Below are positions 1-62,417 of a stretch of 64,000 bases of DNA, one piece after another. The translations under genes were made by a program, and so were the position numbers. Each line of letters starts with the position of its first letter. Within the stretch, counting starts at the first letter, position 1. The notes beneath the pieces were generated by a model, which was not told where the DNA came from, did no database searches, and saw only the letters and a program-made list of their open reading frames with translations. Origin of the DNA: an uncultured Candidatus Saccharibacteria bacterium (lineage in GTDB: Bacteria; Patescibacteriota; Minisyncoccia; Phycocordibacterales; PALSA-1337); assembly GCA_964406895.1 (NCBI GenBank), contig CAYOTK010000004.1, positions 26,016 through 90,015 of the forward strand. The letters are read 5' to 3'.

Positions 1-1236
1 CCCCATAGCGGGAAGACCGTCCTCATGGGTTTGCTTCGGGGCCTGTTGCCCCGGGACAAATTCATGGTTGCAGAGGCGGCACCTGATGGTGAAGGTATCA
101 CCGGATGGTCTGCCGAAGCGACGCAGGAGCTTGTCAAAGCGGTTCGCCGCAAGGGCAAGTTCCTGCCACAGTTCGTGGATTGGGTGTGCGCCTCGGTGCA
201 TAACTCCACGATGCCGATCACTCTCGTCGACTTGGGCGGAATGCTCTTGGACGATGAGGGAAAGTTCTCCGCCACGGGTGTCAGGCTGACAACGGAGAAT
301 GAACGAATCATGCGGGAATGCAGTCACTTGATCGTGATTGCGAACCCGAGCTACATGGAGTCGGCGGTGCCTACCTGGATCGCTGAAGCCAATCGTCTGG
401 GGGTCAAACCCTTGGCCATCCTCGAGTCGGTTCTTACGGGAGCTGATGATGAGATTGTAGCTGGGGGTGAACTCCCGATGCGAGCGCGTATCACGAAGCT
501 CGACCGGGAAAATCCTCCCCAATCCACAACCGCAAAGGTGGTCGTGGATTTGATCCTTTCACTCACAACAACGGAAGTCGTTGTGAAGGATGGTTCGGAA
601 GTCGCGGATGTGAATTTCCCGCGACTTGCCGAAACGCTCAACCTGCCGGTAAAAAACGGCGGGGCGGATCGCGACTGGCGACCTTCGGATCTTCCGAAAG
701 TACTGGCTGAAGCCAAAAAGCTTCTGGCCGGAAAATCGGAAGTGCGCCTTTGGGGAAACACTCCTCTCGGCGCACCGTACCATGTCCTCGCGGCAAATCT
801 GTCGCAGGAGGTTTGGTACGCTGATCCGAAAGTTCCGGGTGGCTATGTAGCTATTCCGGAAATGCCGGCCAGCACGGGAACACTCCTTGACTGGAAAGTC
901 GGGGAACGGGATGACAGCTCTCTCGTGGAGTTTGTCATTCCTGGGCAGGTGTTCAATGCGAACACTCTGCCCACACTCACCTTGCCGGAAGTGGACACTC
1001 GCAATGGTGTCGTAATTTCCGGCAAAGGACCACGTTGGCTCACCGGCGCAATCGCTCGGGCTTATGCTCGGGCAGGCGCCGCCTGGGTAGCGGTCTTTGA
1101 ACCGCGCGAGTCCAGCCGGATGCAGACTGACGGAAAGAAATGGTCGGAACACCATTCTGGCCAAGCTCCGGCAATTGTGGTCTACACGCGAGAGCGAGAC
1201 CACACCATCGGAACGATCATTCCGTTCAGTCTGTAA
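1..1236 (+). CDS. P-loop GTPase-like protein, paralog A (5' partial; continues upstream of window)
   Basis: Frame 1 is open from nt 1 and reads PHSGKTVLMG before the ATG at 25, so the Walker A/G1 lies at the window edge. ITLVDLGG is a G3-like DxxG motif. The N-terminus (PHSGK[ST]..L..LLP....FGAPDGE..W..EA.Q.LVK, hhhVDxGG) and the C-terminal block (GP.WL...IAR.YA.AGA.W.AVF.P.ES.R.Q...G.KWS..H) are homologous to ORF 7006..8715. Codon usage is GC-rich. Confidence 0.6.
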   Translation, partial: PHSGKTVLMGLLRGLLPRDKFMVAEAAPDGEGITGWSAEATQELVKAVRRKGKFLPQFVDWVCASVHNSTMPITLVDLGGMLLDDEGKFSATGVRLTTENERIMRECSHLIVIANPSYMESAVPTWIAEANRLGVKPLAILESVLTGADDEIVAGGELPMRARITKLDRENPPQSTTAKVVVDLILSLTTTEVVVKDGSEVADVNFPRLAETLNLPVKNGGADRDWRPSDLPKVLAEAKKLLAGKSEVRLWGNTPLGAPYHVLAANLSQEVWYADPKVPGGYVAIPEMPASTGTLLDWKVGERDDSSLVEFVIPGQVFNANTLPTLTLPEVDTRNGVVISGKGPRWLTGAIARAYARAGAAWVAVFEPRESSRMQTDGKKWSEHHSGQAPAIVVYTRERDHTIGTIIPFSL

Positions 1237-1370
1237 CAATTCAAAGGAATGGCAACTTCCTGATCCTTGATGGACAAATCGTTGCAGAAGCTTCGGAGAA
1301 GTGCTTCGGTTTTACTTCTCCACTTTATTCAACTCACGAATGGTTCGTGGGTTGACTGAGAAAGGTTTTC

Positions 1371-1871
1371 ATGAAAAAAGTTCTTGAGGCGATTGAGTTC
1401 GCTTTTTTGAAACACTTGGGCCAAGAGCGCCCAGGAGGTGAACCACAATTCGCACACGTGCTCCGAGTCGCCAAGTTGGCGGAGGAATGCGCGCAATGGC
1501 TGTCGCCAGAATCCGGTGAAGTTTTGGTCGTGTCGGAAATCCTCCACGATGTGTTGGAGGACACGCCGACGACGGACGCAGAAATCTGCAAGAAGTTCGG
1601 TGATGAGGTTGCCAAAATCGTCCGCGCTCTCTCGCATGAAAGCGAGGAGGAACCGGATGAGGTATATCTCCGCCGAGTAGCTCGGGGAGGTAAGATTGCA
1701 GTGTTAGCCAAACGGTTTGACCGACTGGACAACCTGCGATCGCTTGCCACAATGCCAGCGGAATTTCGCGAGCGAAAACTCGCGGAAGTTCGCTCGGCAC
1801 TTCCCATCTGGCGAGAGATCGATCCGGATGGAGCTTTGGAAATTGAGAAAGGAGTGGAGAGTTATGGATAA
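1371..1871 (+). CDS. Small HD-domain hydrolase, SpoT/Mesh1-like (small alarmone hydrolase-like)
   Basis: HLGQERPGGEPQFAHV...SEILHDVLEDTPTTDAEICKKFGDEVAKIV...VLAKRFDRLDNLRSL follows the RelA/SpoT hydrolase HD pattern block by block (H..Q.RKSGEPYI.HP / LLHDV(I/L)EDT / FG..VA.LV / KLADR.HNMR.L). It is 166 aa with no synthetase domain. Confidence 0.65.
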   Translation: MKKVLEAIEFAFLKHLGQERPGGEPQFAHVLRVAKLAEECAQWLSPESGEVLVVSEILHDVLEDTPTTDAEICKKFGDEVAKIVRALSHESEEEPDEVYLRRVARGGKIAVLAKRFDRLDNLRSLATMPAEFRERKLAEVRSALPIWREIDPDGALEIEKGVESYG

Positions 1872-2118
1872 CCGACCACTTTACGAACTCAAAATCAGAG
1901 CAACTTTTGTCCTTAGACTCCCCGAACCAGTTCGCGCTGAATTCGTGGAAATCGCGAGGGCAAAGTCTCCTTCGGCGAGTTTTGATCTCGCCCAGTTCGC
2001 CGCGCGAGCACGCGGAATTGTTAGTACGGAAGTCATTGCGATCGCAAAAGCTACGCGTTGGCTCTCAGTGATTCGCCGTGATCATGGCGATCAAGTGTTT
2101 GAACAGATTGTCGCTTAA
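1864..2118 (+). CDS. Ribbon-helix-helix (Arc/MetJ-like) DNA-binding protein
   Basis: The ATG at 1864 overlaps the HD gene stop (ATGGATAA), suggesting translational coupling. N-terminus MDNRPLYELKIRATFVLRLPEPVRAEFVEIARA matches the Arc-type beta-strand/helix signature (..R.P..L...L...A). It is 84 aa. Confidence 0.45.
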   Translation: MDNRPLYELKIRATFVLRLPEPVRAEFVEIARAKSPSASFDLAQFAARARGIVSTEVIAIAKATRWLSVIRRDHGDQVFEQIVA

Positions 2119-2136
2119 CGTGGTAACGGGGGTTTT

Positions 2137-2352
2137 ATGCCAAAGAAAAAAAAGATGCCCAACCGACGGATAAAGGTAAAAGGGTTCACATTGGAAGTAG
2201 TTTCTCCGAAATGTCCTTTTTCCGACGCTACGACGGAGGAGCGAGCAAAGGATCAGGCAGAAATGATTGCCAATGGAGGAATTCATCCTGCATGGTTCTC
2301 GGTTACAGCCGAAGACGTCCAACGCGAGTTAGATAAGGACAAGCTCAATTAG
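2137..2352 (+). CDS. Hypothetical small basic protein
   Basis: 71-aa ORF starting 19 nt after the RHH gene, same strand, with GC-rich codon usage. No recognisable motif. Confidence 0.3.
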   Translation: MPKKKKMPNRRIKVKGFTLEVVSPKCPFSDATTEERAKDQAEMIANGGIHPAWFSVTAEDVQRELDKDKLN

Positions 2353-2387
2353 GAGCACATCGCGCCACAACGCGAACAATTTCAATC

Positions 2388-2420
2388 GGCGAGTTTTTGT
2401 GGAAACTCGCCCACTTTTTT
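2388..2420 (+). terminator. Rho-independent terminator followed by an AT-rich promoter-like patch (to ~2470)
   Basis: GGCGAGUUU / AAACUCGCC stem followed by CACUUUUUU. Then cctataatatttgtttttttaaaattgtagg forms an AT-rich patch inside the otherwise GC-rich island, upstream of the MoxR gene. Confidence 0.45.
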
Positions 2421-2530
2421 GAGCCTATAATATTTGTTTTTTTAAAATTGTAGGCTCTTTGAGTAAACGCCACAAAAATGGCGACGGCTTCAAATAGGTG
2501 CGCCGGAATAAGCACCAGTGGAGAATCACA

Positions 2531-3742
2531 ATGAGTGATATCGTCCAATTGGGGATTGATCTCGCCCCCAAGGTGTCCGCTGTAATGACGGATGTCCTAA
2601 CGCGAAATCTCGGCCGTGAGGCAATTGTGCGGGCAACAATGCTCGCGCTCGTTTCGGGCAGACCGGCGTTTTTCCTGGGCAGTCCTGGGATCAACAAAAC
2701 CGGGACGGTGCAGGACATCGCCCGTCGGGTTGACGGTGCGGTGTTTTTTGACGCGCTCATGCCGACCATCGTGTCGGTTGAGCAACTGTTGGTGGAGAGC
2801 ACCTCCATCGTGGAGTCCCCGATAACTGATGGAGGTAAATCCATCAGCACCAGCGACAAGCTTGGGCGAGCAGCAAACGCGCACATTCTGTTCGCCGACG
2901 AGATTTGGAAAGCAGAACCTCGAGTTTTGCAGACCGTTTTGGACTTGGCGAAAGGCGACGGCGTTCGGCACGAGGGACGGATGATTAAAACCCCGCTTCT
3001 CGCTTTTGTGGCGGCCAGCAATGAGCTGCCGGATTCTGAAGGAAACCTCGGAGCACTGTGGTCACGAATGACCATTCGAGCCGAGGTGAAGTCCCTTGAC
3101 CGGGCCGGAAAAAAAAGCCTGGTCGCGACGCGATTGAACCGGCAACAGGCCGGCAAGTCAGCGCCGACAGGGGCGACTCTGACACTCGCTGAAGTGGAAA
3201 CGCTTCGCGAGGTTCGGCCGTTCGTGGAGGTTGGTGACGATATCGTCGAGATTGTACTCGACCTTTACCAATCGCTCCTTGACGGGGACAACGCCGGGTT
3301 CGCCTGGCTATGGGCCGACGACCGACGGTTCGGTCGTTGCATTGACGTTTTGCAGGCCAGTGCACTCCTTGACGGGAGAGCGCGAGTCGGCAAGCAGGAC
3401 CTTCGGGTTCTGGAGTTCTTGCTCTGGGACACCCCCGAGCAGATCCCCGTCGTCAAAAGCAAAATCGCCCCGCTCTGTCGGACACCACTGTCCGACGCGC
3501 AGGAGCTCGTAGACACACTCTTCGCTCCAGCGGGAGTGGTGGCGGAAGCGCTGGCTGGCGATCGGAACAAGATTGTTCCGGCCATCACCCAGTTTGAGGA
3601 GGCTGAGAAGGAACTCAGCCGGCTCGCGGGTGAGGCGAGTGGAACGGAAAAGGAGCAGATCGGCACGCTCCTCGCCAAAATTGCCGAGGAAAAACAGAAC
3701 GCGGTGGCGATCATACTTGGCGCCAAGCGTTGGAAAAAGTAG
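2531..3742 (+). CDS. MoxR-like AAA+ ATPase with atypical Walker A
   Basis: Start taken at the second ATG (MSDIVQLG), with GGAGA 8 nt upstream. Walker A is LGSPGINKTG (N replaces the conserved second G). Walker B is ILFADEIWKA. The MoxR sensor region DEI.KA.P.....LL....E......G......P..F..ASNELP parallels DEINRA...TQ.ALLEAM.E..V......-....F.VIATQNP. Confidence 0.7.
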   Translation: MSDIVQLGIDLAPKVSAVMTDVLTRNLGREAIVRATMLALVSGRPAFFLGSPGINKTGTVQDIARRVDGAVFFDALMPTIVSVEQLLVESTSIVESPITDGGKSISTSDKLGRAANAHILFADEIWKAEPRVLQTVLDLAKGDGVRHEGRMIKTPLLAFVAASNELPDSEGNLGALWSRMTIRAEVKSLDRAGKKSLVATRLNRQQAGKSAPTGATLTLAEVETLREVRPFVEVGDDIVEIVLDLYQSLLDGDNAGFAWLWADDRRFGRCIDVLQASALLDGRARVGKQDLRVLEFLLWDTPEQIPVVKSKIAPLCRTPLSDAQELVDTLFAPAGVVAEALAGDRNKIVPAITQFEEAEKELSRLAGEASGTEKEQIGTLLAKIAEEKQNAVAIILGAKRWKK

Positions 3743-3754
3743 AAAGGATCGGAA

Positions 3755-5491
3755 ATGCAAACGAAAGCCAGCCCGCTCATGCGGCAGGAGTTGCAGAAAC
3801 TCCTGGTCACGGATGCGGACGCTTTCACGGCGCTCCGCTTCCTGCGTCACCGCGAGCGCACCCCAGCGCTTTCGGAATTGGAAAACCAAGGAGGAAACGA
3901 GGTGCCCGGTTTTGCCGGAGCGCTTTGTGACCTCTACCACTCACTGTGGACGGAGACACCCAAGGTCAAGGAAGAAATTCCGGCTGACCGGCGGTTCTTC
4001 GCGGAGATTCTTCGGGGGGCGCTGGCATCGTCAGCGTTTGATGGTCTCCACGCGCAGACACAGTACTCAGACATCAAGTCGGTACTCGGCACCCTTTCCA
4101 TGGGTGATGCAGTGCTGGCAACGATGTCTCCGGAGGAAAAGAAAAATCTCCAAGACACTGCTAGTGCGCAGAAAACAGCGGATGAAGCCGAGGACGAGGC
4201 CAAACAGGCCGAGAACGAAGCTGATTCTGCTGAAGCACTCGCCCAGATGGTGGAGCAATCCGCCGGACAGGGCGAGAGCAGTGAGGGCGGACAAGAATCA
4301 TCCGGCGATCCTTCGGGAGAAGCCGAGGGTGGTTCTGGAGCGCCCAAATCAGGCAGTCCTTCAGGATCGCCAAGTGGTGGTTCACACGGAGCAGTTAGCG
4401 GAATGACGCCCGATGAAGCGCAGGCACTTGCGAACGAACTCGCTCGACAAGCGAGGGAGGCGCGTGCCAAAGCCAACTCGGCACGCGAAACTGCGAACAG
4501 CGCCAAAGAGGTCGCCGAATCCATCGCCAACCAACTTCTGGGGCAACCCGGAAGCGAGGAGGCGATGGAGAGAGCGAAAGATCTGGCGCGTCGTGGATTA
4601 GCCGCTGCTCAAAAGGCCCAAGCGAAGGTTGAGGAAGTATCCAAGACCATTGACTCGTGGGGGCTTGAGGAAGGCGAGCTCGTCCAGATGGGCATTCCGG
4701 AGGCCATGGGGCTTCTAGAAAAAATGCGCCAGAGCACGGCGCTCAAGAAGTTTGCTCAACTCCTGGGCCGAATCAAAAAGATTGCCGCTCGAAAAGCGGC
4801 GTCCGATGATAAAGCCGATGGAGTGCGAGTCACGAAGCCGGAAACGGGTCATGATATCAAAAGAGCGCTTCCGAGGGAGCTCACTGCTCTCTCGCACCCA
4901 TCGCTTCGTTTCGGCGCACTGACGCGCTGGAGCCGAGGAGAACTCGCTCTTCGGGGCGAGGAATCAAAGAGGAAATTGGGCGAGGGGCCGGTCGTGGTCT
5001 GCGAAGACTCGTCAGGCTCTATGGACGGGGTTAAGCAACAGTGGGCAAAGGCTGTAGTTTTAGCACTGGCCCATTACGCAAAGCTTCGTAACCGATCGTT
5101 CGCGTGGATCATGTTTGACACTGCTATCCAGCGGAGTCGCATTTACACTCGCGGGCGATTAACGCCCAAGGACCTTTTGGAAATCGCCGAGTCACGCTCA
5201 GGAGGTGGGACGAATTTTGAAATCCCCCTTCGCGAAGCCGTCAAAGTGATTCGTGGTGCTGGCCTTAAGAAAGCCGACATTGCGTTCATCACCGACGGGG
5301 ATTGCGCGATTTCGGACGAATTCGTTCGGGAGTTTGGTGGGGTCAAGAAGGCATTGGAAGTCAACGTGTTCGCAGTTCTCTGCGATGTTGGCCATACTGC
5401 CGAGGCGACCATTGCAAAATTCTCGGACAGAATTGAACAGGCTTCATCTTTCAACGAGGATGAAGCGGAACAATTTTTCCAAAAACTCTGA
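3755..5491 (+). CDS. von Willebrand factor A (vWA) domain protein with acidic/coiled-coil N-terminal region
   Basis: Starts 12 nt after MoxR, with AAAGGA upstream. The C-terminal vWA domain has a complete MIDAS: VVVCEDSSGSMDG (DxSxS), SRSGGGTNF (T) and AFITDGD (D). The N-terminal ~380 aa are Ala/Glu/Ser/Gly-rich low-complexity and coiled-coil. Confidence 0.75.
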   Translation: MQTKASPLMRQELQKLLVTDADAFTALRFLRHRERTPALSELENQGGNEVPGFAGALCDLYHSLWTETPKVKEEIPADRRFFAEILRGALASSAFDGLHAQTQYSDIKSVLGTLSMGDAVLATMSPEEKKNLQDTASAQKTADEAEDEAKQAENEADSAEALAQMVEQSAGQGESSEGGQESSGDPSGEAEGGSGAPKSGSPSGSPSGGSHGAVSGMTPDEAQALANELARQAREARAKANSARETANSAKEVAESIANQLLGQPGSEEAMERAKDLARRGLAAAQKAQAKVEEVSKTIDSWGLEEGELVQMGIPEAMGLLEKMRQSTALKKFAQLLGRIKKIAARKAASDDKADGVRVTKPETGHDIKRALPRELTALSHPSLRFGALTRWSRGELALRGEESKRKLGEGPVVVCEDSSGSMDGVKQQWAKAVVLALAHYAKLRNRSFAWIMFDTAIQRSRIYTRGRLTPKDLLEIAESRSGGGTNFEIPLREAVKVIRGAGLKKADIAFITDGDCAISDEFVREFGGVKKALEVNVFAVLCDVGHTAEATIAKFSDRIEQASSFNEDEAEQFFQKL

Positions 5492-5502
5492 AAGAGGAAA
5501 TT

Positions 5503-6156
5503 ATGGAAAATATCGTTGTAACGCTTCGAGCTGACCGGGGCAACAAGTTCGATGAAGACGGTCAGTGTATCGGGACCCATGAAAGGTCAATCGTCTTCAT
5601 GCCACGCGAGGTCAAGCCTGACCAAGTTGTCCGCGTCCGACTCATACCGATCATGGATCGAATGACGGGGAAAGAAAGAGTGGACAAAGGTGGCAGAGTT
5701 ATGTACCGCGCCGAACTCGCACCAGCGGAACTGCCGAGGAAATGCGAGGAAGACATTGCAAGGCAAGCAAAAGCCTTGCGGCAAGGCAAACCCTTTCCGA
5801 AGGATCAAGGCGAGGCACTCGCCAAATCCATATTTGGTAAGCGATTGGAACGTACTGACCACAAGTGGTACTACTTTTTCGCTGATGCCATCTTGGGGTC
5901 GCGGTTTTCACCCGCTGCCCTATTGATCTTAGAGGGGATGCCGATGTCTTCTGGTAGCTCATACGATGAGCTTATGGGGTGGTTGATCGGTAAAACTCGC
6001 TGGGGTTACAACTGGTACCACTTCCGAGAATCAGGAAAGATCGGAAAGGATGAGGTTCCGGAGTTTCCAGAAATAGAGCTCCGGACACTTATCGCGCGCC
6101 TTGAAAAAGGCGAATGGGTCATCGCAGACCTCTTGGTTAAGGAGGAACCGCGATGA
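5503..6156 (+). CDS. Hypothetical protein with TRAM-like (OB-fold) N-terminus; candidate vWA-MoxR-associated partner
   Basis: Starts 11 nt after the vWA gene. N-terminus VVTLRADRGNKFDEDGQCIGTHERSIVFMPREVKPDQVVRVRLIPI resembles the TRAM pattern (G.G.....g.vvFV....PGE.V.v.I). The rest is unassigned. Confidence 0.4.
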   Translation: MENIVVTLRADRGNKFDEDGQCIGTHERSIVFMPREVKPDQVVRVRLIPIMDRMTGKERVDKGGRVMYRAELAPAELPRKCEEDIARQAKALRQGKPFPKDQGEALAKSIFGKRLERTDHKWYYFFADAILGSRFSPAALLILEGMPMSSGSSYDELMGWLIGKTRWGYNWYHFRESGKIGKDEVPEFPEIELRTLIARLEKGEWVIADLLVKEEPR

Positions 6157-6191
6157 AAGGTTTTTGGTGCTGCAACACCAGTGGTTAAACC

Positions 6192-6235
6192 GGACGAATT
6201 TTTGCAGAAATTCGTCCACTTTATTCAATTCATAA
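6192..6235 (+). terminator. Hairpin after the TRAM-like gene (possible terminator)
   Basis: GGACGAAUUU / AAAUUCGUCC 10-bp stem, followed by ACUUUAUUCAAUUC, which is only moderately U-rich. Confidence 0.35.
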
Positions 6236-6327
6236 CTTCGGTTACGGATTGATAGAGTTTCAGCTCGAACCGCGTCCGCAGGCGCAACAATTTGCGGAAA
6301 AATTGCCCTTGAAAGGAGGGCTAACAG

Positions 6328-6774
6328 ATGAATTACAAAATCATCCCCGGATCCGTCGGGGTCCGGAAGTCGTTTCAGGTTACCTGCGGACTGCGCGTCG
6401 GGTACGACGCAGCCGCGGTGACTCACACCGGCGAGGAGGCCGTCGAGTCCGTCCTCGAACAATTGAAGTTCCGTGCGGCTGCGGGACTGCCGTACCTAAC
6501 CGGTACAATCACAACCGGAGAGGTCGTGTATGCATGGTCGGATGGGCCGGGCAAGGCCGGCGGCGGGCACGAGCCCGTCATCCGGTACGAGGGAGAAGTC
6601 AACCCCCTGTACAACAAGAATCTTCTCGAGAATCACGACGAGGTCGTCGCGATCTTGAACGAGCTCGGCATCGCCCTCGGAGCGGCGCTCGGGCAAACGC
6701 GGATCTACCTGGCCTACGACGGCCAGACGTGGATCCTCGAGGCGGAGAAGGCGGTTACCCCGACGGGTAACTAA
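6328..6774 (+). CDS. Hypothetical protein
   Basis: 148-aa ORF on the same strand within the island, with GGAGGG upstream. No recognisable motif. Confidence 0.35.
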   Translation: MNYKIIPGSVGVRKSFQVTCGLRVGYDAAAVTHTGEEAVESVLEQLKFRAAAGLPYLTGTITTGEVVYAWSDGPGKAGGGHEPVIRYEGEVNPLYNKNLLENHDEVVAILNELGIALGAALGQTRIYLAYDGQTWILEAEKAVTPTGN

Positions 6775-7005
6775 TTTCTCCAAAGGTTGTGTGAACCTTC
6801 AAAACATTCTGCGTCCCGCGTGGCGCAAAAAAATTTGGTTAACGGTGAGTGTATGCGGACACCCACAAAACTTTCAGCACCGGTCGGGTTGATCGGTGCT
6901 GGACTTTATTGAGTCCGTCCGCTTTTAGCGGGTTGATTCAAAAAGTTAAAGACAGCGACGAGAGTCGCCCGAGCCAGTCGGGTACTGGCATGAAAGGATA
7001 GCGGA

Positions 7006-8715
7006 ATGAAAAATATCCGCCGAGTAGTGGTTTGCGGACCCCCGCATTCGGGAAAGTCTGTGTTCCTAGCCAATCTCCAACGGCTATTGCCGGTTGAGCA
7101 TCACATGCTCATTTTCGGCGCTCCCGACGGTGAGTGGCATTGGAGCAACGAGGCCAACCAGAGCCTCGTCAAAAACCTGCGGGAAAAGAAAGGCTTCTCG
7201 CAGGACTGGTGCCGTCAAATCGTAACAGCGATCCAGAGTGCCGATCAGAAATTGGTACTCGTGGATACGGGTGGCAAGCGATTGCCACCGAACGATGAGA
7301 TCTTCTCGTCGTGCGATGGTTTCATCATTATTTCCTCATCGCCGGAGGAAATGATTGAGTGGCGGAAGTTCGGCGAGAGTTTCGGATGCCAGTGCTTGGC
7401 CGAGCTTGACTCGGTTTTGCATGGAACGTCAGAGCTCTATCCAGACCGCAAGGACGGCATCATCCGCGGTCAGATATGCGGTCTCGAGCGCGGGAAGACC
7501 ATTGAGTCGCCTGTGATGGACGCGGTGGCCAGTCGGCTTTGCGAAGTCATCAAAGCTAACGCTGAAATGACCAAGGCCGAACTTCTCGCCAACATCAATG
7601 GCGTGAAGTTGGTAGACCATCTGGGAATCACAGATCGCTCGGATCCGTATCTCGGAGTGAGGCCCTGGCACACGGCTCCTGCACTCAAACTCACGGCCGT
7701 GGCGCGCCGACTGGAAATCGTGCGAATCTGGAATGTCCGCACAAGTTTCCTGTCCTGCGCCTTCGCCTCGATGCTCCCAGGAAAAGTCCAGCTCTTCGGC
7801 GTGTCCGAGGGGTATGTGGAATTACCTGAAGTCGTTCCGGCTGGGAACGCTTCCGGCGATGGGGTGGAATGGGAAGTTACCGAACTGGCCGAGTATACCT
7901 TAGTGGAATTCCGCAAAACACGATTCTTCACTAAGGAACTGCTGGCGAGCGTGGTACCGCCCGTAGTCAATTCTCGCAAGGGGGTTGTGCTGTCTACGGA
8001 CGGTCCGCCCATCTGGCTAGACGCGACGATCGCAAGGTCGTATGCAAAAGCTGGCGCACCATGGATTGCTGTCTTCGTTCCGGTTGAGTCCGGACGAGTC
8101 CAGCCGTCTTTGGACGGCCAGAAATGGAGTGATGTGCACCCACCAGACGGACCGTGCGTGATAATTTACGGTCCGGAAAATCGGCTGGGAGAAATCATTC
8201 CCGTGCCGATTGCCCTGCTTAAATGGCAAGGGGGTGGACGTAAGTGGCGACTCGGGTCGGGCGAGCCAGTCGTGGATCGACAGAACAGCCACCTTGCCAC
8301 GCACGGCACGGTTTTGCCGTTCGTGGGTGAAGCCTTGCTCCAGATTCAATCCGGAGGACAAGACTTCATCGCCGAAGAAGTAGGTTTTGGCGAAGCCATC
8401 GGGCAGACGATTTGTGTCGCCACCCGCGAGGATGACGACATCGTTTTCGCCCAGCGGCCAAACCGAGCCGGACTCACACGGTTCGTGAAAGGTCGCGAGC
8501 CGGAGTCGTGCTCGACGGTTGTGGTTTGTCTAAAGCGAGCGCGGGAGGGCGGATACATCCTCCTTACTGCGTACATTGGTAGACGCACACCGGCCGAACC
8601 GTGGGACATGGAATGGGCAACGGATCAGTCCGTGCCTTTCTGGAATTCCCATGCTCTGATTTGGGGGCACGAATCAACAATACCAGGAACTGAAACGAAG
8701 GTTTGTTCTTGGTGA
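7006..8715 (+). CDS. P-loop GTPase-like protein, paralog B
   Basis: G1 is VVVCGPPHSGKS and G3-like is LVLVDTGGK. The N-terminal domain and a C-terminal block (GPPIWLDATIARSYAKAGAPWIAVFVPVESGRVQ...GQKWSDVH) are paralogous to ORF 1..1236. An additional ~170-aa C-terminal extension is present. Confidence 0.65.
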   Translation: MKNIRRVVVCGPPHSGKSVFLANLQRLLPVEHHMLIFGAPDGEWHWSNEANQSLVKNLREKKGFSQDWCRQIVTAIQSADQKLVLVDTGGKRLPPNDEIFSSCDGFIIISSSPEEMIEWRKFGESFGCQCLAELDSVLHGTSELYPDRKDGIIRGQICGLERGKTIESPVMDAVASRLCEVIKANAEMTKAELLANINGVKLVDHLGITDRSDPYLGVRPWHTAPALKLTAVARRLEIVRIWNVRTSFLSCAFASMLPGKVQLFGVSEGYVELPEVVPAGNASGDGVEWEVTELAEYTLVEFRKTRFFTKELLASVVPPVVNSRKGVVLSTDGPPIWLDATIARSYAKAGAPWIAVFVPVESGRVQPSLDGQKWSDVHPPDGPCVIIYGPENRLGEIIPVPIALLKWQGGGRKWRLGSGEPVVDRQNSHLATHGTVLPFVGEALLQIQSGGQDFIAEEVGFGEAIGQTICVATREDDDIVFAQRPNRAGLTRFVKGREPESCSTVVVCLKRAREGGYILLTAYIGRRTPAEPWDMEWATDQSVPFWNSHALIWGHESTIPGTETKVCSW

Positions 8716-9295
8716 AAAAAGTGTTAGAAAGTGCACCCAAAAAACTTTCCTCCGCTACAGAGCGTTGTGGCAAACATACGCATATGTAATTGTTCTTTTG
8801 GTCAACGGTAGTTCTGATGCGTCAGGGTTACCACAACAAAATTCCCAGCACCGCCTTGGTCGGTGGCGCTGGACTCAATTGAGTTCATGATTTTAGAGGA
8901 TCGTGAATTCATAGAGTATTACGCAGTGAAATAAGCATTAAAACAAAAAGAAGGCCCCATAAAGCTATAGGCCAGCATGACGGAATCAGATCAGGAAAAA
9001 GTGCGAGTGATTGCAAAATCTCTCTCCTCTAACCCTTCGACAAGCTCAGGATTATCCCGAGCAAAGTCGAGGGACAAACACGATTTCTTGGTTTGTCATC
9101 CAGTCGTTATGACCTGTAGCTTTATGGGGCTTTTTCATAATTCAAGACAATATACATTGCCACAATGTCAACATGGTTATTAGGTTGCTTAAAATATGGC
9201 TTATTATATAATTGATGCATGGTTCGAAACTCGATCCACCTTCACACTAGTGAATGGTAGGCCGAGACCATTTATTAGCATTAACAATAAATATA

Positions 9296-12763: not shown

Positions 12764-13001
12764 GGATTTCAACAAAAGGCATTATAGCCTATAATTTCAA
12801 AATTTGAAAGTTTTTACAAAACACTCTTGCTTCGCCAAAGGCTTCGCAAGACGAGTGCGTTTTTATAACTGTCCTACTACGCTCCTCACTCCGTTCGGAG
12901 CTTCGTAGGACTGCTTCGCGAAAGTGTATTATTGAGAATGCAATTAAACAAGTACTTGTACTGCGAAGCGACCCCAGCGATTAGCTGGGGTCGCGAAGCA
13001 G

Positions 13002-13075
13002 TACGCCCGGCAGGACTCGAACCTGCAACCCCTTGGTTCGAAGCCAAGTACTCTATCCAATTGAGCTACGGGCGC
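13002..13075 (-). tRNA. tRNA-Arg (anticodon UCG)
   Basis: The reverse complement reads GCGCCCGUAGCUCAAUUGGAUAGAGUACUUGGCUUCGAACCAAGGGGUUGCAGGUUCGAGUCCUGCCGGGCGUA. Anticodon loop is CUUCGAA, T-arm is GCAGG-UUCGAGU-CCUGC, with a G1-U72 wobble. CCA is not encoded. Confidence 0.7.
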
Positions 13076-17966: not shown

Positions 17967-18134
17967 AAACAAAGCAGGTACAGCATGTACATACTAGTCG
18001 TTGCGAAAACTCACTCCTTAAATTTCTAAGAAAAAGCCTCACGAGGTCATCACGGTTCGGCTTTTTCTAAGAAATTTATAGTCGTTCAAACAGTTCGCAA
18101 CGACTAGTATGTACATGCTGTACCTGCTTTGTTT
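17967..18134. repeat. Palindromic element copy 1: perfect 41-bp inverted repeats flanking an 86-bp conserved core
   Basis: aaacaaagcaggtacagcatgtacatactagtcgttgcgaa at 17967-18007 is the exact reverse complement of 18094-18134. The core at 18008-18093 has its own internal inverted repeat (aaatttctaagaaaaagcc / ggctttttctaagaaattt) and is shared with 20813-20898 and, in reverse orientation, 62079-62167. Confidence 0.7.
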
Positions 18135-18261
18135 TCATCGAACACCACACCCTGCACATGAATTTTTGTGAGCAATCCAAATGAGGTGGTTACGCATGAC
18201 TATTGCATACGCACTTGTTTGCTCACAAAAATTCATGTGCAGGGTGTGGCGTGAAGAAAAA

Positions 18262-19209
18262 CTATTTCTTCTTATTATGAAACTTCTTATGAATATTCCT
18301 AAGCTCACTGTCTGTAACGTGAGTATAAATCTGAGTGGTTCCAATATTTGCATGACCAAGAAGCATTTGCACAGAACGCAAATCGGCACCATTTCTGAGT
18401 AAGTCAGTAGCGAAACTATGACGTATGACGTGTGGAGTAACTTTCTTCGAAATTCCAGCCTTAATAGCATAGTGTTTTATGATTCTTTCAACAGATCTTG
18501 TCGTCAACCTCGAAGCCTCCATATTGTTTTTCTTATTCGAAATCTGAACAAACAAAGCTTCTTCCATGTCATCTCTTTTGTCGAGATATTGCTTCAACCA
18601 TTTTTTGGCTTCATCAGAAAGAAAAACTACCCTTATCTTATCTCCTTTACCTCTGACAGAAAGCTCATCCAGCTTCATGTTGATTTCACGGGGCAGGGCA
18701 CAGAGCTCTGAAACACGCAAACCAGTCGAAAAAAGAAGTTCCATGATGGTTCGATCACGAAGGCCTCTCAATTTCGTTGTGTCGGGTGCATCCAATAATC
18801 GGCCTAATTCCTCGATTGTTATAAGATCCAGCGACCTTTCAGGAACTTTTGCCAATTCTATTCTCTCTGGCGGTAGTGATTTCACGCTCATTCTGGCAAG
18901 ATATTTGAGAAATGCTCTAAGAGCAATGAGATAGTAATTCTGAGTCTTCTTCTTCATGGTACCTGAAGCTAATCCTTTTGTTTTGCTTCCTTCTTGTCGA
19001 TTTAACCATAACCTAAACTCCCTAACCACATTATCTGTTATGTCATTTGGTGATTTCACCTTGGTAAATGATATGAAACGCGTCAAATATCGATCATAAT
19101 TTTCAACAGTCTTGAGTCCGCGACCTTTCTCTATCTCTATGTACTCCAAAAACTGTTGTTTCATGTCTTGAATATTGTGCGACATGAATACATTGTAGCA
19201 ATTATCCAC
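18262..19209 (-). CDS. xerC: Tyrosine site-specific recombinase, XerC/XerD family
   Basis: C-terminal catalytic motifs HVIRHSFATDLLRNGADLRSVQMLLGHANIGTTQIYTHV (R..H..R..LLGH...Y). N-terminal SAM-like domain (FLEYIEIEKGRGLKTVENYDRYL). Start could be any of the first three ATGs. Confidence 0.8.
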   Translation of the reverse strand: MDNCYNVFMSHNIQDMKQQFLEYIEIEKGRGLKTVENYDRYLTRFISFTKVKSPNDITDNVVREFRLWLNRQEGSKTKGLASGTMKKKTQNYYLIALRAFLKYLARMSVKSLPPERIELAKVPERSLDLITIEELGRLLDAPDTTKLRGLRDRTIMELLFSTGLRVSELCALPREINMKLDELSVRGKGDKIRVVFLSDEAKKWLKQYLDKRDDMEEALFVQISNKKNNMEASRLTTRSVERIIKHYAIKAGISKKVTPHVIRHSFATDLLRNGADLRSVQMLLGHANIGTTQIYTHVTDSELRNIHKKFHNKKK

Positions 19210-19249
19210 ATTTCAAACACACTTGACAAAAAAATGTGTGGTGGTAGTA

Positions 19250-19710
19250 TCTTACGTCAGATGACCTTTGGTAATGGTGAGGGCGCAGAACACACCACTC
19301 GTGGTGTGCAATACGCTTTGCATCGAAGGGTTGTCTGTGGCCTAACATCGAAAAAAAAGGCCACTATTGGAGGAAAGCCTATGAACAGTCCGCCCTGTGC
19401 GCTTCTCATGCGCACCAATGGAACGACCAAGAGTTCGGCGACATCCCGGGCGACCTGAAGCCCCGACCGGCCAACGGTACGCAGAACATCAACCAAAGAA
19501 AGGGGGTAGCGTGGAACGACTCGCAAAAATAGTCATCGCCCGAATGGTGGTGATTGAATGGCGGGCCAACACGGCCTTCACCTAACCAAACCTAGGGAAC
19601 CACAACAATTTCGCGGCCCTCCCTACCGCCCCGACCAGGCCGGTGAGCTAGTAAGAGCACGTACCCCACGTCGCTCGAGTTGGCTCACCGGCCGAATCTT
19701 TTTATATACC
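19250..19710 (+). ncRNA. GC-rich (~57%) candidate structured RNA (unidentified)
   Basis: A 460-nt non-coding GC island between the Xer gene and rpsO. It ends with an 11-bp stem (GGCCGGUGAGC...GCUCACCGGCC) followed by CGAAUCUUUUUAUAU. Contains a GAGGAAAGCC and a GUAAGAGCAC motif, and CGCAAAAAUAGUC resembling the tmRNA resume-codon context. No tRNA-like 3' domain was seen. ORFs in the track here are GC-biased and probably spurious. Confidence 0.3.
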
Positions 19711-19774
19711 TAGATAATGCAGATTTTAATACAGAAAGTTGCAAAAAAACCTCATTCATGCTATCATTTCCCAC

Positions 19775-20041
19775 ATGTTAACCACACGACAAAAGACAAA
19801 AGTAATCAAGGAAGTTGCTGTACATGACAAAGATACAGGCTCTTCTGAGGTTCAAATAGCTATTCTTACAAAGAGAATCACAGAATTAACCGACCATTTG
19901 AAGAAACACAAGAAAGACAATCACTCTCGACGTGGCCTTCTAGGCATGGTTGCAGACCGTCAAACACATTTGAATTATCTCAAACAATCTCATCCAAGAA
20001 GATACAGTACAGTAGTGAAGAAACTGGAGATTAAGAAATAA
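19775..20041 (+). CDS. rpsO: 30S ribosomal protein S15
   Basis: MLTTRQKTKVIKEVAVHDKDTGSSEVQIAILTKRITELTDHLKKHKKDNHSRRGLLGMVADRQTHLNYL is the S15 signature. Start taken at the second ATG. Confidence 0.85.
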   Translation: MLTTRQKTKVIKEVAVHDKDTGSSEVQIAILTKRITELTDHLKKHKKDNHSRRGLLGMVADRQTHLNYLKQSHPRRYSTVVKKLEIKK

Positions 20042-20081
20042 TGGTTCGACAAGCTCACCATAAATAATCAATAATCAAACA

Positions 20082-20135
20082 CCAATAACCAAGGACTAAC
20101 CTCGGTATGTTGGTTATTGGATCTTGGTTATTCTT
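20082..20135 (+). terminator. Hairpin downstream of rpsO (terminator/processing site)
   Basis: CCAAUAACCAA / UUGGUUAUUGG 11-bp stem with a 17-nt loop, followed by AUCUUGGUUAUUCUUCC. Confidence 0.4.
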
Positions 20136-20203
20136 CCATCACTGGTGTACAATACTGTATAGAGTCATTTTAATAATATTATTACTAATTTTTTCATAAA
20201 AAT

Positions 20204-20722
20204 ATGTCAGTCATAAAACACAAAGAACAGCGTGTTGGTATATTCATCGACGCTCAAAACCTATATCACAGCGGAAAGAATCTATATCATTCAAAGGTAA
20301 ATTTTGGTTCTATAGTCAAAGACGCTCTAGACGGCAGGAAACTAGTCCGTGCCGTGGCCTACGTTATTGCCACAGAATCTGGCGAAGAAAATAATTTCTT
20401 CGACGCCCTGACAAAAATGGGTATAGAAACCAAGGTCAAAGATTTACAAATATTCAGTTCTGGAGCCAAAAAAGCTGACTGGGACGTTGGTCTAGCTATT
20501 GATGCGGTGAAATTATCGCCAAAACTTGATGCTGTTATTCTTATTACCGGCGACGGAGACTTCGTGCCCCTTGTCGAGTATTTGCAGATGAATCAAGGTT
20601 GTCAGGTAGAAGTTGCCTCATTCGGCAAGTCAACCTCAGCTAAATTGATAGAATCAGCGGATCATTTCATGGATTTGGATGAAAACGCAGGTAAATATCT
20701 ATTGAGAGTAGGGAGGAAATAA
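20204..20722 (+). CDS. NYN/LabA-like (DUF88) domain protein
   Basis: VGIFIDAQNLYHS ... AVILITGDGDFVPLVEYLQ is the PIN-like NYN pattern (hhhD..N......GDGDF..L). 172 aa. Confidence 0.6.
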   Translation: MSVIKHKEQRVGIFIDAQNLYHSGKNLYHSKVNFGSIVKDALDGRKLVRAVAYVIATESGEENNFFDALTKMGIETKVKDLQIFSSGAKKADWDVGLAIDAVKLSPKLDAVILITGDGDFVPLVEYLQMNQGCQVEVASFGKSTSAKLIESADHFMDLDENAGKYLLRVGRK

Positions 20723-20774
20723 TATTTAAGCCCGCGTGAATTTATAAATCACCATTTTTAGTGTTGGGTGAATG

Positions 20775-20936
20775 TTTTTCAGCAGTACATGTGTGCTTTT
20801 GTTCGTTGCGAAAACTCACTCCTTAAATTTCTAAGAAAAAGCTTTACGAGGTCATCACGGTTCGGCTTTTTATAAGAAATTTATAGTCGTTCAAACAGTT
20901 CGCAACGAACAAAAGCACACATGTACTGCTGAAAAA
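20775..20936. repeat. Palindromic element copy 2: perfect 38-bp inverted repeats around the same 86-bp core
   Basis: tttttcagcagtacatgtgtgcttttgttcgttgcgaa at 20775-20812 is the exact reverse complement of 20899-20936. The core at 20813-20898 is ~95% identical to 18008-18093. The arm sequences differ from copy 1 but are again perfectly self-complementary. Confidence 0.7.
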
Positions 20937-21153
20937 CTCGTACCTTAGTAAGAAAGAATTTGATTCTCTGGAAAAAAATAAACTATCAATTTCTCCAGAA
21001 TCGTGTTAAATTACAAACATTAATATTAATAATTCGCCTGCAGATAGGCAGGTTTATCCTCCACAGCTTTTCCACATAAAAGCAAAAGAGGGAATCTGAA
21101 ATCTGAAGGCGAATAAGGTCGGACCTCTAAAAGGTCGGACCTCAAAGAAAAAA

Positions 21154-53670: not shown

Positions 53671-53999
53671 TTGAGTTTGAGTATGATAGTATACTTACGT
53701 AAAAGATTTTTATACAGTTCGTACCGGAAATGACAGAGAAATGCTGTTGTTTTATTTTTTCCTTGTAAATTGAGCTCGCAAACCTCTAAGCAATGGCCTT
53801 CCGAAGGTTTGGGTATAGTGCTAAGGACATTTTGGTTGAAAAGCTTGTCTTTTTTTTACTGAAATTATCCTCGGGACTTTACCTCGCTTAACGCATCACG
53901 CGATAAGATATTGCTTAGAGATTTACGCGCTTAATCTCTATTCACATACTACCTCTACGTCTATAGAAAAATCAATTGACACAGCTGTGGATTGCTGTT

Positions 54000-56003: not shown

Positions 56004-56096
56004 ATGACTATGATTATAACAAGAAAGAATTGTCTGCGCATGTTGCTGTGTGATTTATCAAAAGCAGTCACACGCAATTTTGGACATGTTTTGATA

Positions 56097-56225
56097 ACAA
56101 AGAGGGGTTTTGTGTGCTTTGGGACATGCGGGAAATTTTCTGCAGAAAATTTCCCTTATCCTCGGCATTTTTCTGCTGAAAAATGCCTCCGGACATGTCC
56201 CAAAGCACACAAAACCCCTCTTTGT
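56097..56225. repeat. Nested perfect palindrome in the pilB/tsaE divergent region
   Basis: 56097-56128 is the exact reverse complement of 56194-56225 (32 bp). The inner segment contains a 26-bp perfect palindrome GGGAAATTTTCTGCAGAAAATTTCCC and a near-palindrome GGCATTTTTCTGCTGAAAAATGCC. Confidence 0.6.
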
Positions 56226-56269
56226 GGTGCAAACATGGCATTATTTCTCAATTGTATTATCATTAAGTC

Positions 56270-57431: not shown

Positions 57432-59885
57432 ATGCCCAAGCCTGAAAATAACAAGAAAAGACTCGTATTACTAGATGCGCACGCAATACTGCACCGTGCA
57501 TATCACGCTCTGCCCGATTTTCATACCAAGAAAGGCGAGCCAACGGGGGCATTATACGGCCTATCGGCAATGCTTATAAAGATAATAGAAGACTTGAAGC
57601 CAGACTATCTCGTGGCGTGTTACGACGTGCACGCGCCAACTATGAGGCATGAAATATACAAGGATTACAAGGCGGGTAGGAAAAAAGCCGAAGACGATTT
57701 GATATCGCAGATCAAGCGTTCAAGAGATGTTTTCGAAGCACTCAATGTTCCCATATATGAAAAGGCGGGTTACGAAGCGGATGACATTCTTGGGACAATC
57801 GTTTTAGAGGTCGGACTTCGAGGAGGTCGGACCTCTAAAAGGTCGGACCTCGAAATCATAATTGCTTCAGGAGATATGGATACGATGCAACTCATTTCTG
57901 GCGAAGATGTGAAAGTCTACACATTGAAAAAGGGGATTAAAGACACAATCATGTACGACGAGGAAGCTGTGAAAGAAAGATTTGGTTTTGGCCCGAAACT
58001 AATTCCTGACTACAAGGGTCTTTCTGGTGATCCGTCGGACAATATTGTGGGCGTGAAGGGTATAGGTGAGAAGACAGCGACGACACTCATCACAACTTTC
58101 GGCACCGTAGAAAAAATTTACCAAGAATTAGAAGCTGGTCACGAGAAGTCTTTCGAAAAGGCCGGAATAAAACCGCGAATCATTCAACTTTTGAAGGATA
58201 ATAAGGAAGAGGCAGAGTTCAGTAAAATGTTAGCGACTATAAGAACGGACGCGCCGATTGATTTCAAATTACCGGAAAAAACATTCAAGGAAACGCTCGA
58301 CGTCAAAAAAGCAAAATCATTCTGGACAGAGCTTGAATTCAGGACTTTGGGACAGAGATTGGAGCAAGTTATTTCAGGCGATAATAAAATCGTTACAAAA
58401 GGCGAGAATGTGACCAAGGAAGAAGTAGTGCAAAATGAAGAGGGATTATTTGGTTCAGAACAAAACAAAAAGACGCTCGAGAATATTCCGGCCGAAAGAC
58501 TAGAGAAGGTGGCTTTGGCTCTGTGGGTCGTTGATTCCAATATAACTAACCCGACTCTGGAAGACATTTTGAATTTCTCCAATACAGACAGCTTTGAAAC
58601 TGCTGAGAAAGCTATTTTCGATGAGCTAGAAAAGAGAGGCTTGAAGAAAGTCTATGAAGAAATAGAGTTGCCACTTATACCGATCATCAAAAAGATGGAA
58701 ACTCGCGGCGTGAAGATAGATCGTGCCACTCTCAAGGATCTTGCCACAAAATATCACACTGAAGCTGAGCGGTTGGAGAAGGAAATATGGCAGTTGGCAG
58801 GTGTAGAATTTAATATAAGTTCACCGAAACAGTTGGGAGAAGTTTTGTTCGACAAGCTTCAGCTCACCGCCAAGAATATGAAGAAAACTAGTGGTGGTGC
58901 TCGTTCAACCCGAGAATCAGAGCTGGAGAAATTGAGAGATCTTCACCCAATAGTTCCTCTCATATTCAGTCATCGCGAGCTTAGCAAACTCCTTTCGACT
59001 TACATAGACGCTATACCACCACTTCTTGATTGGAATGATCGTCTGCATACACATTTCATATCAACAGGCGCAACTACAGGCAGAATGGCGTCACAGAATC
59101 CAAATCTTCAGAATATTCCTATAAAAACAGAACTCGGTCGTGCCATAAGAAAAGCTTTTGTTGCAGAAAAAGATTTTGTTTTGGCTAGCTTCGATTATTC
59201 TCAAGTAGAATTGCGCATCGCCGCTTTTCTTTCTCACGATGAGAAGCTTATAGAGATTTTCAGGAAAGGGGAAGACGTGCATACTTCTGTGGCCTCATCG
59301 GTTTTCAAGGTTCCGTTTAATGAAGTTAGTGCAGAAATGCGCAGACGAGCTAAGGTTATAAATTTCGGCATCATATATGGCATGGGTGTTTTGGCCTTGA
59401 AGGACAATCTAGGCACGAGTAGAGATGAAGCGCAGAAATTCATGAATGATTATTTTGAAACATTTTCGACTTTGGCTAATTATCTCGACAAAATAAAAGT
59501 TGAGACCAATAAGAAAGGTTATACAGAAACTTTTTTCGGGCGTCGCAGGTATTTCGAGGGTATAAAGTCTAAAATTCCATATATTAGGGCACAGGCCGAG
59601 AGAATGGCTATCAATGCTCCTATTCAAGGAACGGGTGCAGATATCGTGAAAATTTCAATGAAAAATATCGATCGTTTCATTCAGGAAAAAGGTCTTGAAG
59701 GTTCTGTTTTTCCACTTCTCCAGGTTCACGATGAATTGATATATGAAATTCGTGCAGACGTTGCCGATAAGGTCTCGGCACAAATCAGAGAAATAATGGA
59801 GAAAGTGATTGATCCAAAAGAAATAGAGGGCATAATTTTGAAATCCAGTTGCTCACTCGGCAAGAATTGGGGGGAATTGAAGTGA
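57432..59885 (+). CDS. polA: DNA polymerase I
   Basis: Start at MPKPENNKKRLVLLDAHA. 5'-nuclease motifs (LLDAHAILHRAYHA, GYEADD). Polymerase motif A (ASFDYSQVELRI), motif B (RRRAKVINFGIIYG) and motif C (LQVHDELI). 817 aa. Contains an in-frame GC-rich tandem repeat at 57811-57856. Confidence 0.9.
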   Translation: MPKPENNKKRLVLLDAHAILHRAYHALPDFHTKKGEPTGALYGLSAMLIKIIEDLKPDYLVACYDVHAPTMRHEIYKDYKAGRKKAEDDLISQIKRSRDVFEALNVPIYEKAGYEADDILGTIVLEVGLRGGRTSKRSDLEIIIASGDMDTMQLISGEDVKVYTLKKGIKDTIMYDEEAVKERFGFGPKLIPDYKGLSGDPSDNIVGVKGIGEKTATTLITTFGTVEKIYQELEAGHEKSFEKAGIKPRIIQLLKDNKEEAEFSKMLATIRTDAPIDFKLPEKTFKETLDVKKAKSFWTELEFRTLGQRLEQVISGDNKIVTKGENVTKEEVVQNEEGLFGSEQNKKTLENIPAERLEKVALALWVVDSNITNPTLEDILNFSNTDSFETAEKAIFDELEKRGLKKVYEEIELPLIPIIKKMETRGVKIDRATLKDLATKYHTEAERLEKEIWQLAGVEFNISSPKQLGEVLFDKLQLTAKNMKKTSGGARSTRESELEKLRDLHPIVPLIFSHRELSKLLSTYIDAIPPLLDWNDRLHTHFISTGATTGRMASQNPNLQNIPIKTELGRAIRKAFVAEKDFVLASFDYSQVELRIAAFLSHDEKLIEIFRKGEDVHTSVASSVFKVPFNEVSAEMRRRAKVINFGIIYGMGVLALKDNLGTSRDEAQKFMNDYFETFSTLANYLDKIKVETNKKGYTETFFGRRRYFEGIKSKIPYIRAQAERMAINAPIQGTGADIVKISMKNIDRFIQEKGLEGSVFPLLQVHDELIYEIRADVADKVSAQIREIMEKVIDPKEIEGIILKSSCSLGKNWGELK

Positions 59886-62030: not shown

Positions 62031-62078
62031 TGTGTTGGTGGTGGGGAGGGGTGATGCACAAGATGTTGTATTTTTGTA

Positions 62079-62167
62079 TGCAGAGCAACTGTTTGAGCGA
62101 GTATAAATTTCTTGGAAAAAGCCGAACCGTGATGACCTCGTGAGGCTTTTTCCTAGAAATTTAACGA
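62079..62167. repeat. Palindromic element core, copy 3 (reverse orientation, without perfect outer arms)
   Basis: ctgtttgagcgagtataaatttcttggaaaaagccgaaccgtgatgacctcgtgaggctttttcctagaaatttaacgagcgagtt is ~85% identical to the reverse complement of 18008-18093. Confidence 0.6.
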
Positions 62168-62417
62168 GCGAGTTTTGTCGAGGACGATAATACATCATGC
62201 CTAGGGTTTCTTTTAATAAAGCTCCCGCCGGTTTTGGCCGGCGGGGTGAGGGTTCTTTCAAGACCTCCATGGACGCACTGGTCTCGATGCCCTTTTTTTC
62301 GCTCGTCTGATTTGAACTAGAAGCGCTTTAAGGGCTTTGAACTCTACTTTGATTCGTATGGGCATCAAATCCTCCTTGTTGAATTTATAACATCTTACAT
62401 CAAAAACAAAAAAACAC

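Follow-up and report, generated by a model that had tools for sequence, protein, structure and literature searches.

Foldback DNA repeats with a conserved core and largely locus-specific, self-complementary arms in a genome of the Patescibacteria

The 64,000-nt stretch of contig CAYOTK010000004.1 analyzed here (assembly GCA_964406895.1, positions 26,016 to 90,015; hereafter the window) carries three copies of a foldback repeat family, designated X, each with an asymmetric 86-nt core, designated M. With moderate confidence, X is interpreted as an old, lineage-specific, non-coding DNA repeat of about 166 bp, with M at the apex of a stem of some 40 bp whose arms are re-symmetrised at the DNA level. 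The evidence comes from the structure of the copies themselves and from their orthologs in a sister lineage, where the arms and the core behave in very different ways.

Structure of the X copies in the window

Copy 1 (17967..18134, + strand) is a complete foldback of 168 bp, in which M (18008..18093, +) is enclosed by two 41-nt arms (17967-18007 and 18094-18134) with 100% complementarity. Copy 2 (20774..20937, +; 164 bp) is built in the same way, with the core at 20813-20898 and two 39-nt arms (20774-20812 and 20899-20937), again 100% complementary. The core of copy 2 departs from that of copy 1 at 3 of 86 positions (96.5% identity), and the copies share a direct repeat of 106 nt (17998-18103 and 20803-20908, 97% identical). 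The inner 10 bp of each arm (TCGTTGCGAA and TTCGCAACGA) are common to both copies, so that the locus-specific arm parts measure 31 and 29 bp, respectively. A preliminary description of this DNA had recognized both the near-identical cores and the foldback build, two perfect palindromes around one core sequence. Its arms without mismatches were recovered as well, albeit with lengths of 41 and 39 nt instead of 41 and 38.

In copy 1, M is made up of a ACTCACTC box, an inner stem of 19-20 bp (18019-18038 paired with 18059-18078, one A.A mismatch) that encloses a 20-nt loop (TCACGAGGTCATCACGGTTC), and a AGTCGTTC box. The inverted repeat inside the core, already mentioned in the preliminary description, was found at these positions by the inverted-repeat search. 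In M, two ACTCGCTC boxes in direct orientation stand on either side of a hairpin with a 20-bp stem and an invariant 20-nt loop.

Copy 3 carries M in reverse (62089..62174, - strand). The region 62087-62185 is 90% like the other copies, and its core differs from the other two cores of the window at 6 and 9 positions; in the inner stem, an A-T pair of copies 1 and 2 is replaced by G-C in a compensated change. The flanks of this copy have an ungapped mutual complementarity of only about 40%. The left one (62050..62088) is a decayed, one-time arm from which the inner box is gone (...GCAGAGCAA), and the right one (62175..62215) keeps the inner box TTGTCGA and is approximately 65-70% like the perfect arm of its ortholog, as judged by eye and not by a computed alignment. 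A third, reversed copy without perfect arms had therefore been announced correctly, but its core was misplaced at 62079-62167.

Folding of the full palindromes, proposed earlier as a check, gave about -100 kcal/mol for copy 1 on both strands (z-scores -17 and -19) and -83.6 kcal/mol for copy 2 (z = -14.7). Among the other local inverted repeats of the window, with the hairpin families excluded, the next-longest have 26-36 nt and are 71-85% complementary, and none goes beyond 36 nt at 78%. The perfect arms of X are therefore not a product of chance.

Presence and absence in relatives

Contigs of relatives (L-numbered) were recovered through homologs of Xer, Fpg and SpoU. The Xer homologs place the host in the Patescibacteria, near Taylorbacteria (Parcubacteria/Taylorbacteria-like). 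The sister lineage is 86.9% identical to the window in the coding DNA of xer and the exonuclease III gene (exoIII); in exoIII, NYN, pnp and fpg, the difference amounts to 41-48% of the 4-fold degenerate sites. Each of the three X loci has its copy there, at an equivalent site. Copy 1, located between exoIII and xer, has its ortholog in L022/L023/L033; copy 2, between a NYN-domain gene and pnp, in L021/L022/L032/L034; and copy 3, between the gene for a SpoU methylase and fpg, in L046-L049. The orthologs of copy 3 were obtained by the SpoU route, as the contigs reached through fpg homologs ended too early. At all three loci, the flanking genes are ordinary chromosomal genes.

Farther out, X was detected neither by BLAST nor by profile search in the relatives with 81-82% Xer identity. 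The comparison of filled and empty sites called for in the preliminary description could be carried out at locus 1. In a relative with 81% Xer identity, the gap between xer and exoIII measures 1 nt, with no element and no arms. Moreover, strains that are identical over 1728 nt of xer and exoIII carry a spacer of either 469 nt or 173 nt. The long form is composed of Y1, X and Y2 (Y being a second foldback family, see below); the short form holds a single Y-type hairpin, with neither X nor the X arms. The left arm of the short-spacer hairpin matches the allele of the window and not that of the co-occurring long form. Because X is present in both the window and the sister lineage and absent from more distant relatives, it was gained in the common ancestor of these two lineages.

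Mirrored changes in the arms

At locus 2, the two lineages are separated in the arms by one inserted base and one substitution, each mirrored in the opposite arm; both versions are perfect, and the arms of the sister lineage have 41 bp. At locus 3, the sister lineage possesses different, perfect arms of 40 bp (TTCTGGAAGCAGGGGGCAGGACATTATTATTCCTCGACAA and its complement). At locus 1, one arm is conserved between the lineages (29/31), and the other shows about 9 differences in L022 (23/31 matches) and is an exact complement in the window, a one-sided difference that fits a one-step conversion. The covariation of the arms, which had been deduced from paralogs within the window, is confirmed by the mirrored indel and substitution at locus 2 and by the new perfect arms at locus 3.

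Taken together, the stems of the four perfect copies contain 161 pairs, exclusively of the Watson-Crick type and without a single G-T wobble or mismatch, and more than one type of Watson-Crick pair is found at 32 of 39 arm positions. The state of the arms is bimodal: they are either perfect or at least 8 mismatches away from it. Episodic copying of one arm into the other agrees with this bimodality, with the mirrored indel and with the one-sided difference seen at locus 1.

Left arms are only 28-50% complementary to the right arms of other copies. The statement that the arms differ completely between copies was nevertheless too strong. An inner box (TCG..AA) is common to all arms, extending over 10 bp in copies 1 and 2 and over 5 bp in copy 3, and an AGCAG box is situated 27-30 nt from M at all three loci. 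Triples of shuffled arms reproduced such a positioning of AGCAG by chance 36 times in 100,000, and random triples from genomic sequence 530 times in 200,000 (p ~0.0004-0.003). The arm length is also uniform (41, 39, 41 and 40 bp at the three loci), with abrupt ends. From the uniform length and the two shared boxes we conclude that the repeated unit is the whole foldback of about 166 bp.

Two other origins of the arms were considered and rejected. Words taken from the arms had no matches in IMG/VR, which gives no support to spacer-like captured foreign DNA, and a BLAST search of the arms against all the sequence collected for this analysis, made to find copies of another dispersed repeat, returned only the orthologs. 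A wider quasi-palindromy beyond the arms was seen only in L022, where two Y copies are mirrored around X, and is absent at loci 2 and 3.

Conservation of the core

Between orthologs, M differs at 0/86 positions at locus 3, 1/86 at locus 1 and 5/86 at locus 2; three of the latter five differences are private to the window and weaken the inner stem. The overall divergence of about 2%, in comparison with 41-48% at the silent (4-fold) sites of the flanking genes, is of the order found at the first and second codon positions (non-synonymous sites) of the neighbors. The M variants are locus-specific and common to both lineages; hence, the copies are true orthologs and not recent replacements. The near-invariance of M argues for a sequence-specific reader, and M is probably a recognition module for a trans-acting DNA-binding or DNA-processing protein, which would bind folded or duplex DNA. 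No complementarity of the loop to another site in the window was found.

A conserved center on covarying stems is also the classical signature of RNA, and an X family of structured non-coding RNAs, with an apical M on a long compensated stem destined, for example, for RNase III processing, has to be considered, although it appears unlikely. The very stable folds, the compensated A-T to G-C change in the inner stem of copy 3 and the conservation of M at the level of non-synonymous sites would all suit an RNA. However, several observations speak against it: no wobble occurs in the 161 pairs, either strand folds equally well, and the arms are bimodal instead of showing occasional mismatches. Furthermore, copies 1 and 2 are oppositely oriented to their flanking genes, and M at locus 3 is flipped yet 100% conserved (see below). 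A scan for promoters and terminators detected neither of them within or next to X, and Rfam gave no match at gathering thresholds, with only sub-threshold, generic miRNA-hairpin artefacts at E <= 5. The structured-RNA possibility raised in the preliminary description is therefore disfavored by the lack of wobble pairs, the flipped orientation and the negative promoter, terminator and Rfam results.

Two further foldback families of like layout

The window contains two more foldback families with unrelated cores. The Y element (18142..18252, no strand assigned) has 34-bp arms with 97% complementarity, a conserved 12-bp inner box TTTTGTGAGCAA and a 43-nt loop. Its other occurrences are at 2855-2965 and 3144-3264 of L022 and at 1174-1276 of L024; in L022, the arms are perfect with mirrored differences, and the loop is inverted compared to the window. 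The W element (56085..56237, no strand assigned; 4322-4462 in L046) is T-shaped, with arms perfect over the inner 32 bp. Its core of 67 nt consists of two perfect mini-hairpins and is 100% identical in L046, and its arms show about 9 mirrored differences between the lineages. Together with X, three unrelated core families of one layout are present in one small genome. A search of metagenomes with the Y-family pattern produced five matches, none of them related: one was a coding-sequence foldback at a contig end and four belonged to another repeat. Inside the arms of the X, Y and W foldbacks, CATG is enriched (12 occurrences, 2.5 expected), and GTAC also exceeds its expected number (6 occurrences, 1.2 expected).

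It is conceivable, if rather doubtful, that X, W and Y represent a hitherto undescribed class of functional DNA hairpin elements in bacteria of the candidate phyla radiation, read by a dedicated protein and serving a role for the host. If so, the ultra-conserved, asymmetric core would be read as folded single-stranded or cruciform DNA and could flip in place, and the long stem would be kept symmetric by arm-to-arm copying. Such elements, neither selfish repeats nor RNAs, might, for example, take part in replication, help to process DNA taken up by the cell, or operate as a switch.

Orientation of the core

The orientation of M at locus 3 in the window was confirmed by the independent Logan contig L040, and the opposite orientation was found in L051 and in the sister lineage (L046-L050). 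L051 is 98.5% identical to the window in the SpoU gene, and its decayed flank (...GCAGAGC) is the same as that of the window but joined to the other end of M. What has been inverted is therefore M alone, with no more than AA/TT at its borders. The two orientations at locus 3 distinguish strains from each other. Copies 1 and 2 have opposite orientations relative to their flanking genes, each unchanged in both lineages.

A short asymmetric segment between long inverted repeats, found in both orientations with end points exactly at the arm-core boundary, recalls an inverton, in which a recombinase would flip M between the inverted arms and so change the expression of the flanking genes. The flipped loop of Y and the tyrosine recombinase gene adjoining copy 1 point in the same direction. 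This explanation is nevertheless improbable: duplex synapsis would have very little room in a segment of 86 bp or, in Y, of 43 nt, the promoter scan gave nothing within M, and copies 1 and 2 have not changed orientation in either lineage. As for the recombinase, the location of Xer beside copy 1, pointed out in the preliminary description, is real but coincidental. This xer is a conserved housekeeping copy that keeps its synteny in all relatives, including those without X, so that its proximity is uninformative and Xer was ruled out as the partner enzyme.

The flip end points coincide with the M boundaries even beside a decayed arm, which would also be consistent with a mobile element confined to the 86-nt core and inserting at the center of pre-existing palindromes. 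The arms are locus-specific over about 30 bp, and with M removed they read GCGAA/TTCGC at loci 1 and 2 and GACAA/TTGTC at locus 3, leaving an AA/TT center at the junctions of all copies. Such core-only mobility has little probability, however. No unoccupied long perfect palindrome exists in the approximately 280 kb examined, including the 64-kb window, and the only X-less haplotype lacks both arms too. Judging by their uniform length and common AGCAG box, the arms are inherited together with the element. Moreover, M cannot have been replaced often, because its variants are locus-specific and shared between the lineages.

The least probable explanation, arms made anew at each insertion or repair by snap-back synthesis in which a 3' end, folded on the hairpin of the core itself, copies one flank across, would account for perfect, abruptly ending and mostly locus-specific arms and for the like layout of three unrelated core families (X, Y and W), but it conflicts with the shared boxes, the uniform arm length and the persistence of orthologous arms across 41-48% 4-fold divergence, and a single-arm empty site was not found.

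Proposed history of X and points against it

According to the preferred interpretation of X as an old foldback DNA repeat with re-symmetrised arms, the element would have been gained in the common ancestor and retained at three intergenic sites since. A protein acting in trans would read M through its two boxes, the inner hairpin and the 20-nt loop. The arms would need complementarity alone and would drift between corrections, whereby copying at the DNA level, with one arm as the template for the other, would periodically make them perfect again. Candidate routes for this are a template switch during replication and a correction within the hairpin (quasi-palindrome correction). M might be inverted in place by an event of this kind or by a site-specific one. 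The anatomy of the copies, their orthology, their absence from outgroups, the contrast in conservation, the mirrored arm changes, the purely Watson-Crick stems and both orientations are observed, whereas a partner protein, the mode of copying and earlier mobility of X, if any, are inferred.

Several observations weigh against this interpretation. About 31 kb of orthologous sequence were compared and contained no lineage-private insertion, hence mobility of X at the present day is not demonstrable, and inspection by eye revealed no direct repeat (target-site duplication) around the foldbacks at loci 1-3 in either lineage. No transposase (Y1_Tnp or other), dedicated recombinase or other evident partner was found among the approximately 40 window proteins scanned. 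The similarity between paralogous arms outside the boxes is weak (p ~0.01-0.03), and the strong conservation of M in its every part would be compatible with RNA, too. With regard to the inversion, the symmetry of the end points at locus 3 is limited to AA/TT, something that a simple template switch does not readily explain, and the L051 junction relies on the final 24 nt of its contig. Finally, the sample of X is limited to three loci in two lineages.

Further copies and the effect of palindromes on assembly

The density of X in the window is three copies in about 54 kb of native sequence. Searches elsewhere were negative. Exact core words had 18 matches in GTDB representatives, all in unrelated coding sequence, and none in JGI metagenome contigs or in IMG/VR; the inner boxes with a gap, used as a pattern, had none in IMG/VR. 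With the whole foldback, BLAST found nothing in phage records, and only a 22-nt chance match in Borreliella among plasmid records. Exact-protein look-ups beyond the window led only to short Logan contigs.

Two independent Logan contigs, L019 and L020, both break off precisely 30 nt inside the left arm of copy 2 (20774-20803). This length corresponds to a k-1 break point only if the contigs were built with k = 31, as is assumed here. Contigs that end 30 nt into the arm indicate that perfect palindromes break short-k de Bruijn assemblies. Such breaks might help to explain why most public assemblies show no sign of X, and might contribute to the fragmentation of genomes of this group.

Other features of the window

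The genes dnaA and dnaN are located at 45.7-48.4 kb. Positions 1-9000 differ from the remainder in base composition (55% G+C vs about 37% elsewhere) and encode two Csx3-domain proteins (25-1236 and 7006-8715), an HD protein and a MoxR-like AAA + VWA pair; this part is probably a horizontally acquired defense island.

Between xer and rpsO, the stretch 19223-19700 (+) starts with a sigma-70-like promoter (TTGACA, 16 nt, TAGTAT), continues with about 440 nt at 56% G+C without a long open reading frame, and closes with a hairpin and a T run; it has no match in Rfam even at E <= 5. The sister lineage (L021, 9737-10000) has an identical promoter and 3' hairpin only about 110 nt apart, so that the stretch in the window contains a G+C-rich insertion of about 330 nt within a small conserved RNA-like gene. 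Another intergenic region, of 650 nt, contains an inverted repeat (53769-53935; L046 2038-2203) that is imperfect, 26 nt long and interrupted by a spacer of about 115 nt. The sister lineage has the same arm sequences, and Rfam gave no match; this repeat is possibly a conserved structured element.

Immediately before the start codon of pnp (21116-21146) is a near-palindromic motif in tandem, AGGTCGGACCTC. It recurs at 57808-57854, and the sister lineage has conserved it in part. Two hairpins that resemble each other, with stems of 21 bp (12958-13004 and 60981-61027), overlap the 3' ends of tRNA-Arg and tRNA-Lys or adjoin them, and belong to a 126-nt direct repeat with 75% identity.

Comparison with known systems

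Integron attC sites have conserved R/L boxes at the stem base, a variable center and a cassette context with IntI. The conservation pattern of X is the opposite, and its neighbors are housekeeping genes. Intrinsic terminators consist of a short G+C-rich stem followed by a T run; the X stems of about 40 bp are A+T-rich, copy 2 is not followed by a T tract, and the terminator scan was negative. Typical invertons span 100 to several hundred bp and have a promoter inside and a dedicated invertase. X shares with them the inverted repeats around a short asymmetric segment seen in both orientations, but M has no promoter, no dedicated invertase was found, and the neighboring xer is chromosomal.

The T-shaped inverted terminal repeats of the parvovirus type, with their flip/flop forms, are located at the ends of linear single-stranded genomes. 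The W element, a long stem capped by two small perfect palindromes, and the flip/flop of X and Y are similar in shape, and the GAGCGAG-type direct boxes in M are reminiscent of Rep-binding repeats, a mere resemblance. In contrast to these viral termini, X, Y and W are internal to the chromosome, and no Rep or HUH protein was seen.

Miniature inverted-repeat transposable elements (MITEs), such as the Correia/NEMIS, RUP and Nezha types, are small non-coding intergenic repeats whose presence varies among relatives. Their terminal inverted repeats are alike in all copies and match those of a parent insertion sequence, with a target-site duplication outside. X is likewise small, non-coding and intergenic, has inverted repeats and is polymorphic for presence among relatives; its arms, however, are largely locus-specific, no duplication accompanies them, and no parent insertion sequence is in view. 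The earlier suggestion of a MITE-like foldback element is thereby upheld as regards the presence/absence polymorphism but not as regards uniform terminal repeats and target-site duplication.

The closest known kind of element is the REPIN, in which conserved REP (repetitive extragenic palindromic) sequences at both ends surround a variable spacer and compensatory changes on both sides of the hairpin are common (PMC3116915). REPINs and X are both non-coding intergenic foldbacks of about 100-170 nt that form long hairpins in single-stranded DNA. They differ in that the 86-nt center of X is conserved and the outer 30 bp or so of its arms are variable, the reverse of the conserved REPIN ends. In addition, X has no GTAG-type REP motif, and its arms are perfect and those of REPINs imperfect. 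REPINs are mobilized by RAYT (Y1 HUH) transposases, whose genes are flanked by REPs, and they number tens to hundreds per genome; for X, three copies were seen in about 54 kb, and no RAYT among the approximately 40 window proteins scanned.

A process able to maintain such arms is quasi-palindrome correction by template switching, in which DNA synthesis perfects imperfect inverted repeats or extends their identity (PMC3820800). Acting here, it would yield exactly the mirrored changes and the one-step perfecting observed in W, in Y and at the three X loci. It is known as a class of mutation at arbitrary quasi-palindromes and not as the upkeep of a conserved family, the role that may be assigned to it here.

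Overall, the known bacterial palindromic repeats (REP, REPIN and MITE) have conserved ends, and the present data show for X an unusual, reversed layout with a conserved center and drifting yet perfectly self-complementary arms. The arms can serve as a natural record of how long palindromes are maintained, in which the data favor one-step arm-to-arm copying over stepwise compensation.

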